Assembly (NCBI RefSeq): GCF_056712565.1
Contig: NZ_CM160072.1
DNA length: 64,000 bases
Reading direction: 5' to 3' (one strand)
Positions 13,039 through 13,622 of this stretch are shown one piece after another; the first letter of the stretch is position 1, and each line of letters begins with the position of its first letter. A model generated the notes under the pieces. That model was not told the origin of the DNA and searched no databases. It saw only the letters and a program-made list of their open reading frames with translations. The position numbers and the translations under genes are program-made.

Positions 13039-13060
13039 GCGCGGGGGAAAATCCCCGCGC
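13039..13060. terminator. GC-rich hairpin 3' of hokB remnant / ydcA
   Basis: Perfect 8-bp stem gcgcgggg / ccccgcgc with gaaaat loop. Confidence 0.4.
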
Positions 13061-13066
13061 TTGCCC

Positions 13067-13177
13067 TTACCTGGACGTGCAGGCCATGAGCGCAGCAACT
13101 TCCTTATCACCGTCCCGGAACCGCAGTTCGTAGAGCGATTGTCGGGTCAGTGTGAATGTCAGAATCGTGTTACTCTC
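13067..13177 (-). pseudogene. hokB: Hok-family type I toxin gene remnant (3' part only, start codon missing)
   Basis: Minus-strand frame ends ...[32 protein letters not shown], matching the C-terminus of HokB; no Met or upstream Hok N-terminus; upstream sequence is trg-derived. Confidence 0.5.
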
Positions 13178-13622
13178 GCAAGGCCCTGGATTTGCCGTTG
13201 TCGCCAGCGAAGTACGGACACTCGCAAGCCGCAGCGCCCAGGCGGCGAAAGAGATTGAAGGCTTGATCAGTGAATCAGTCAGATTAATTGACCTGGGATC
13301 GGATGAGGTGGCAACGGCAGGGAAAATCATGTGCACTATTGTTGATGCCGTCGCGAGTGTCACACATATCATGCAGGAAATCGCCACCGCCTCGGGTGAA
13401 CAAAGTCGAGGCATAACGCAGGTTAGCCAGGCGATTTCTGAAATGGATAAGGTGACGCAACAGAATGCTTCTCTGGTAGAAGAGGCCTCAACGGCAGCGG
13501 TGTCCCTTGAAGAACAGGCGGCACGACTAACTGAGGCGGTGGACGTATTCCGTCTCAACAAACATTCTGTGTCGGCAGAACCTCGCGGAGCTTGTGAACC
13601 AGTTAGTTTTGCTACGGTGTGA
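13152..13622 (+). pseudogene. trg: methyl-accepting chemotaxis protein Trg, C-terminal ~150 codons only
   Basis: 156 aa ORF containing only the MCP signalling-domain tail ([13 protein letters not shown]...[32 protein letters not shown]); full-length Trg is about 546 aa; the first ~10 codons are antisense to the hokB remnant, so the ATG is fortuitous. Confidence 0.6.

Follow-up and report, generated by a model that had tools for sequence, protein, structure and literature searches.

Tls, the Trg-like signaling protein, is the described repressor of flagellum synthesis in phylogroup B2 of E. coli. It was named by Lee et al. (EMBO J 2025; PMC12623472) as a protein in which a short N-terminus, MNVRIVLLS (TlsN), is fused to residues 400-546 of the chemoreceptor Trg. 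As cited in that paper, Borziak 2013 had held the truncated trg of B2 strains to be a pseudogene, and Lane 2006 had described the reduced chemoreceptor set of uropathogenic strains. Deletion of tls in strains S13 and UTI89 derepresses the fliC promoter, complementation of the S13 deletion is dose-dependent, and expression of Tls in the K-12 strain MG1655 reproduces the repression (PMC12623472). The protein represses class 2/3 flagellar genes through sequestration of FlhDC, which is bound in liquid and not in semi-solid medium; its foci are dynamic and often polar, and CheA/CheW are not used for its signalling (PMC12623472). TlsN is the primary determinant, in that TlsN and its arginine R4 are needed for both foci and repression: R4D abolishes activity, R4K retains it, and dimerisation is also needed, probably via the Trg fragment, with AlphaFold3 models of Tls given in the same paper (PMC12623472). 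With tls, a piece of a gene that annotation had long listed as a pseudogene has acquired a new regulatory role, and the case is well documented; in extraintestinal pathogenic E. coli, flagellum synthesis is under its control, and adherence to bladder cells and gut colonisation are affected.

The DNA analysed here, called the window, is a stretch of 64,000 nucleotides (NCBI RefSeq assembly GCF_056712565.1, contig NZ_CM160072.1), in which the order gapC–cybB–rydC–ydcA–yncP–(hokB)–(trg)–ydcI–ydcJ is that of the E. coli neighbourhood. It is 100% identical to E. coli ATCC 11775 (= DSM 30083), whose chromosome has a single place matching the query; ST95 strains are also identical to it at the locus, and NMEC strain O18 is identical across 4,060 bp. 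Breakpoint coordinates refer to K-12 NC_000913.3, the PGAP annotation compared comes from NZ_CP033092.2, a record identical to the window, and population counts were taken among 5,426 complete E. coli genomes (RefSeq). Upstream of the locus, cybB and ydcA flank an intact RydC sRNA (12587..12650, minus strand; Rfam RF00505, 90.5 bits). The gene gapC, for type I glyceraldehyde-3-phosphate dehydrogenase, forms an intact 333-codon ORF in the window (10856..11857, minus strand), in ST131 and in Nissle 1917, and is a frameshifted pseudogene in K-12, NCTC9040, LF82 and DCE7.

The locus is very likely a phylogroup-B2 allele in which trg has been cut down and converted into tls. The feature itself is therefore already known; what is added here is the exact three-step history reconstructed for it and the probable origin of TlsN from antisense hokB. 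The main text of Lee et al. (PMC12623472) mentions neither hokB nor an antisense or intergenic origin of TlsN, nor the nested order of the deletions, nor any mapping of the native promoter and start codon.

The fusion gene and its two sources

The fusion ORF occupies 13152..13622 on the plus strand, with a GTG start, 156 codons plus stop and the C-terminus SFATV*, and it is tls, as identified from the ORF list, Pfam and an exact-sequence look-up. The look-up returned identical proteins from UTI89 (ABE07120.1), a strain whose Δtls was assayed (PMC12623472), from APEC O1 (ABJ00869.1) and under AKK32992.1 (listed as E. coli APEC O18). The N-terminus (GTG)NVRIVLLS is the MNVRIVLLS given for TlsN, including arginine at position 4, and beyond it the protein consists of Trg 400-546 only according to the alignment with K-12 Trg, as in the TrgΔN construct of the same paper (PMC12623472). 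PGAP calls both fragments at the locus pseudogenes and labels tls an 'incomplete methyl-accepting chemotaxis protein'; automatic pipelines thus still mislabel the gene, and a loss-of-function reading misses a functional one.

The codon table and alignments place the nine Tls-specific codons of TlsN at 13152..13178 on the plus strand. The stretch 13152..13168, which holds codons 1-5 and two bases of codon 6, reads antisense to hokB codons T16-T21 and includes the R4 codon AGA (13161..13163). A 9-nt island follows at 13169..13177; it completes V6 with its last base, spells L7 and L8 and contributes the first two bases of S9, while base 13178, the last base of codon 9, is the first base derived from trg, from which everything downstream also comes.

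On the minus strand, translation, Pfam and PGAP delimit a hokB remnant at 13067..13168, comprising codons 16-49 minus one Leu codon, plus stop. Its translation of 33 codons lacks one leucine and has one T→S change relative to HokB residues 16-49; Pfam HOK_GEF matches it (E=5e-14) over profile positions 12-42 of 42, and PGAP labels it in NZ_CP033092.2 as 'Hok/Gef family protein, incomplete, missing N-terminus'. With the native ATG and codons 1-15 gone, no complete hok ORF of about 50 codons with its N-terminal transmembrane segment is present. Beside the remnant, the mokB start, sokB and the hok promoter region are also missing: the Rfam sok model RF01794 (109.7 bits in K-12) finds nothing at E≤1 within 12300..13800 of the window, and the overlapping mok frame and antisense Sok RNA gene typical of a Hok/Sok module belong to a segment that lies inside a 297-bp deletion. 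Because hokB codons 1-15, the mokB start and sokB are deleted, a functional hokB/sokB module cannot be made from this locus, judging by its gene content, and the strain would have no hokB/sokB activity.

Two further reading frames touch the remnant. A mechanical ORF of 164 aa with a TTG start (13067..13561, minus strand) covers most of tls in antisense and has the Hok C-terminus at its end; nothing points to this minus-strand frame being a gene. The truncated hokB remnant is also present in LF82, which we take to be closely related to NRG857c. For the latter strain, a toxin–antitoxin survey of AIEC reported a 141-nt unannotated 'Hok-3, homologous to hokB' and called the hok loci apparently intact (PMC7232551). 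If NRG857c has the same allele, 'Hok-3' is probably the remnant running into antisense tls (compare window 13067..13207, minus strand) from a non-native start.

The Trg-derived part, delimited by the PGAP coordinates for partial trg, the K-12 alignment and the variant table, lies at 13179..13622 on the plus strand and comprises Trg residues 400-546 plus stop; in the compared K-12 segment it aligns from 3667 onward. Intact Trg contains TarH (11-178), HAMP (221-271) and MCPsignal (335-492) by Pfam. The only one of these found in the 156-aa ORF is MCPsignal (E=3.9e-27), at profile positions 66-172 of 172, so that the set of TarH, two transmembrane helices and HAMP expected of a receptor is absent. 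The antiparallel signalling hairpin (MCPsignal 1-172) is likewise incomplete, its N-terminal arm and part of the tip having been deleted, and at the conserved MCP tip motif EQGRGF the window allele has proline in place of arginine (R402P). A Trg chemoreceptor cannot be made from a locus that no longer encodes the ligand-binding domain, the two transmembrane helices, HAMP or the first half of the signalling hairpin, and the strain would lack Trg-mediated taxis towards ribose and galactose.

A frameshifted B2-type trg of full length occurs in strain 1105 (NZ_CP023388.1, 2406..4045 of the compared segment), and it also has R402P (CCT) at EQGRGF. The presence of this replacement both there and in the window tls may mean that trg was point-inactivated in some B2 lineages or that the variant spread by recombination.

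Nested deletions and the alleles that preserve them

The alignment to a K-12 hokB–trg reference that the original prediction had proposed maps two junctions, at 13168..13169 and 13177..13178. Homology on the left (12800..13168) corresponds to K-12 1,491,656..1,492,026, and homology on the right, from 13178 onward, to K-12 1,493,666 onward; between them, the alignment blocks place the 9-nt island GTTACTCTC (13169..13177, plus strand; K-12 1,492,324..1,492,332), which has been kept between two deletions. Junction 1 (13177..13178) marks a deletion of 1,333 bp (K-12 1,492,333..1,493,665, from the alignment) that took 137 bp upstream of trg, trg codons 1-398 and two bases of codon 399; the sigma-28-like trg promoter (TAAGTAAT-N11-GCCGATGA) falls within it. 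Junction 2 (13168..13169) marks the deletion of 297 bp (K-12 1,492,027..1,492,323), established by BLAST and by alignment against ST131, K-12 and FHI_NMBU_03, which took hokB codons 1-15, the 5' part of mokB, sokB and the upstream hok leader and promoter region. Aligned to the same reference, a third and small lesion of 3 bp is seen at 13147..13151 (TCAGGAGTG→TCAGTG), which cost hokB one Leu codon and removed an AGGAG motif immediately before the tls GTG. The alignments reveal no microhomology at either junction.

Most of the structural claims of the original prediction survive this comparison. The minus-strand Hok C-terminus without a start codon, the switch to Trg about 110 nt above the hokB stop (111 nt, with Trg homology beginning at 13178) and the start of the 156-aa ORF in antisense hokB are all as described, and the end of trg joined to the 5'-truncated hokB, put at about 150 codons, amounts to exactly 147. 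The absence of the hokB 5' end, mokB start, sokB and the trg upstream region is likewise confirmed, as is the loss at this locus of the Trg chemoreceptor and of functional hokB/sokB that follows from the missing domains, codons and sokB. The extent and the number of events require revision: trg codons were indeed lost, 398 of them instead of about 390; the sequence missing relative to K-12 across the two large deletions is 1,630 bp (297 + 1,333) and not about 1.3 kb; and the one deletion envisaged is replaced by nested losses, first of 1,333 bp, next of 3 bp and last of 297 bp, intermediates of which survive in other genomes.

These intermediates form a series of alleles. The undeleted state 0 is represented by FHI_NMBU_03, in which hokB and trg are intact between B2-type flanks, and a variant of it (state 0') by strain 1105, where trg is full-length and frameshifted and R402P is already present. 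State 1, found in O25:H4/ST131 and SCU-125, has only the 1,333-bp deletion and an intact hokB. State 1.5, found in isolate DCE7, combines the 1,333-bp and 3-bp deletions with a hokB that is otherwise complete (48 aa) and with the sokB region; this allele (NZ_CP090611.1, 2929..3781 of the compared segment) is a rare intermediate, present in 2 of the 5,426 genomes. State 2 has all three lesions and comprises the window, Nissle 1917, LF82, STEC299, A32, O18 and ABU 83972. The order is 0 → 1 → 1.5 → 2, because junction 1 and the 9 nt preceding it are identical in states 1, 1.5 and 2. Extant genomes thus hold a natural series that leads from a receptor through a pseudogene fragment to a new regulator.

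The same 9 nt argue against a single deletion of about 1.6 kb, independent of the ST131-type allele, with filler bases inserted at the junction. The lack of microhomology at both junctions would suit such an event, and short filler DNA is common in illegitimate recombination; yet the presumed filler GTTACTCTC agrees exactly with the 9 bases found before junction 1 in ST131, SCU-125 and DCE7, and in the undeleted sequence too; the two classes of allele do not differ by a single base at junction 1, and the 3-bp deletion is found separately in DCE7. A single event, which we consider very unlikely, was accordingly rejected on the strength of the 9-nt island and the surviving intermediates.

Population counts agree with the series. 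Tested with a 60-nt junction sequence, the double junction, including junction 2, is present in 308 of the 5,426 genomes, and junction 1 with the hokB side intact in 603, so that state 1 is about twice as common as the TlsN state in RefSeq complete genomes, an excess for which over-sampling of ST131 is the most likely cause. In 925 genomes the first 750 nt of trg occur nowhere, compared with 911 carriers of the junction, which leaves about 14 genomes with other lesions; the 297-bp hokB 5'/sokB segment is missing in 320. When full coverage in megablast is taken as at least 80% of the query, 5,106 genomes match the hokB 5'/sokB segment to some extent and 4,501 of these match it in full; the roughly 600 that match only partly are close in number to the alleles with the first junction alone.

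These mutually agreeing counts rule out both an assembly artefact and a second copy elsewhere. The notion that full-length hokB/sokB and trg are really present in the strain and were lost in sequencing or assembly, which the original prediction had named as its own possible undoing, deserves practically no credence: the same junction recurs in 308 independent complete genomes, the loss of the trg 5' end from 925 genomes matches the 911 junction carriers, and the query matches one place only in the ATCC 11775 chromosome. Nothing specific speaks for it, although one record bearing the junction, EcN_Sk (NZ_CP172017.1, assembly GCF_044094645.1), looks chimeric. At the SNP level EcN_Sk is 99.7-100% identical to K-12 MG1655 over about 35 kb, while its structural states are all of the Nissle type (hokB–trg double deletion, no IS609, hicA deleted, no ydbD); true Nissle 1917 is B2-like and only 96.3-98.1% identical to K-12. 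It looks like a chimeric consensus, perhaps from K-12-like reads polished onto an EcN scaffold, and not a natural recombinant. The interpretation that the deletion had moved by recombination onto a K-12-like background was dropped, and the record was left out of the genealogy because it is treated as chimeric.

Sequence comparison shows three steps in the origin of tls. The 1,333-bp deletion stripped the trg promoter region and codons 1-398 and left Trg 400-546 behind hokB/sokB, a state that persists in ST131. The 3-bp deletion then took one hokB Leu codon, as persists in isolate DCE7, and the 297-bp deletion finally removed hokB codons 1-15, the mokB start and sokB, joining the antisense-hokB GTG to the Trg frame across the 9-nt island. 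The product is a cytoplasmic protein of 156 aa composed of TlsN (MNVRIVLLS) and Trg 400-546. As it was the 297-bp deletion that brought the antisense-hokB GTG into the frame of the Trg fragment, the active N-terminus would have been absent until then.

The allele before that deletion is informative in this respect. In the tls frame, state-1 genomes read …VIRFSQFNHSLLSQGRGF…, which is the TlsN* of Lee et al.; the frame would need an ATT start there, and the longest ORF with a canonical start is only 119 aa. Fused to mCherry, TlsN* gave neither foci nor repression (PMC12623472). Given the inactive fusion, the need for an ATT start and the 119-aa canonical ORF, ST131-type strains are probably without Tls activity while retaining hokB/sokB, which is also what is predicted if the 297-bp deletion created the active N-terminus. 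The functional N-terminus of Tls thus probably represents de novo coding from antisense hokB that arose only with the 297-bp deletion that destroyed hokB/sokB, whereas lineages with the first deletion (O25b:H4-ST131, E2348/69) keep hokB/sokB and an inactive TlsN* that lacks a canonical start, the four-step series (0, 1, 1.5, 2) having been preserved.

Function, expression and possible constraint of tls

Sequence variation in the Trg-derived part differs among carriers of the three lesions. Over residues 400-546, the proteins of LF82, STEC299 and A32 do not differ from the intact Trg of FHI_NMBU_03; the window (ST95/UTI89-type) allele differs from the closest intact B2-type Trg by R402P, T449I, D472G and G538C, and the Nissle allele has R402P, S440A, C451S and V507L over the same residues. 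Across the 147 Trg-derived codons, the events counted among deletion carriers are about 8 nonsynonymous and 10 synonymous, where neutrality would give about 3:1 (75% nonsynonymous; binomial p=0.005), and their N:S ratio is indistinguishable from that of functional lineages (Fisher p=0.47). These counts fit purifying selection on the Trg-derived part, for which they are weak evidence because they are small and because recombination with functional trg alleles could import synonymous differences.

An alternative holds that neutral deletion, in one or more events, left behind two dead gene fragments, the 156-aa frame being open by accident and without a role. Both fragments are PGAP pseudogenes, and Borziak 2013, as cited in PMC12623472, regarded the truncated trg in the same way; the signalling hairpin is halved, no recognisable promoter or Shine-Dalgarno sequence was found upstream of the ORF, and the frameshift of full-length trg in B2 strain 1105 suggests that loss of Trg is tolerated or favoured. 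The four replacements in the window allele, including R402P at the most conserved MCP tip motif, would also suggest decay, but this allele, R402P included, is the very one of UTI89 that was tested. Apart from the significant deficit of nonsynonymous changes relative to neutrality, functional data speak against mere wreckage: Δtls in S13 and UTI89, whose protein is identical to that of the window, derepresses the fliC promoter, the S13 deletion is complemented, expression in K-12 represses, and R4D abolishes the activity (PMC12623472). The accidental reading is consequently improbable.

The function of Tls is assigned to the window because its protein is 100% identical to the tested UTI89 allele, and the environment-dependent repression of flagella is predicted with high confidence to transfer to it. 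The original prediction was therefore right to see a real loss at the locus and wrong to see wreckage only, as the ORF is functional Tls by its identity to UTI89 ABE07120.1. It had also allowed that an intact shorter gene in its native arrangement might be present: the arrangement is derived and not native, yet the shorter gene is functional, so that in a sense this is what was found.

Between ydcA and the tls GTG, a sigma-70 consensus scan and relaxed sigma-70 and sigma-28 scans gave nothing convincing, and sigma-70-like hexamers occur upstream of ydcA only (12662..12720). Apart from ydcA (12821..12994, plus strand), the only plus-strand coding sequence upstream of tls is the small ORF yncP (13020..13089, plus strand; PGAP annotation), which is frameshifted here. 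The GC-rich hairpin GCGCGGGGG-AAAAT-CCCCGCGC (13039..13060), recognised from sequence and alignment, lies inside yncP at the 3' end of the hokB transcription unit; no T-run follows it on the plus strand, and no plus-strand terminator is predicted between ydcA and tls. Since the trg and sokB promoters are both deleted, transcription of tls by read-through from ydcA–yncP is inferred, and this source is the most economical because yncP spans the hairpin. The yncP frameshift itself comes from one G too many in the hairpin's G-run (GCGCGGGGG, as against GCGCGGGG elsewhere); the extra G also occurs in NMEC O18 and is therefore a lineage marker and not a sequencing error.

As regards translation, no good Shine-Dalgarno sequence precedes the tls GTG. 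The 3-bp deletion next to this start predates the 297-bp deletion (state 1.5) and hence is not the result of selection for tls translation. A possible alternative start is the in-frame GTG of codon 6 (13167), from which the product would lack R4.

Comparison with described systems

Compared with the hokB/mokB/sokB locus of K-12 (b4428, b1420, b4429), the window keeps the 3' 102 nt of hokB (33 C-terminal codons and the stop) and the downstream hairpin, in the same place after ydcA/yncP. It lacks hokB codons 1-15, the mokB start, sokB, the leader, the promoter and one further codon, and the opposite strand of the remaining hokB DNA has become the 5' end of tls.

K-12 Trg (b1421) is homologous to the window ORF over residues 400-546, with 8 differences, and the homology includes the C-terminal arm of the signalling hairpin. 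In contrast to K-12 Trg, the ORF is without TarH, both transmembrane helices, HAMP, MCPsignal positions 1-65 and the sigma-28-type promoter, and it cannot function as a receptor.

The TlsN* allele (MRFSQFNHSLLS) of E2348/69 and ST131-type genomes is closer, sharing with the window junction 1, the Trg fragment and the island-encoded 'LLS'. It differs in that the 297-bp deletion is absent, hokB/sokB is intact and the N-terminus is read from trg-upstream DNA. No difference at the sequence level separates the window from the Tls of S13 and UTI89 (PMC12623472), with which it shares the same protein, a TlsN with R4, the Trg 400-546 body and the place next to ydcI.
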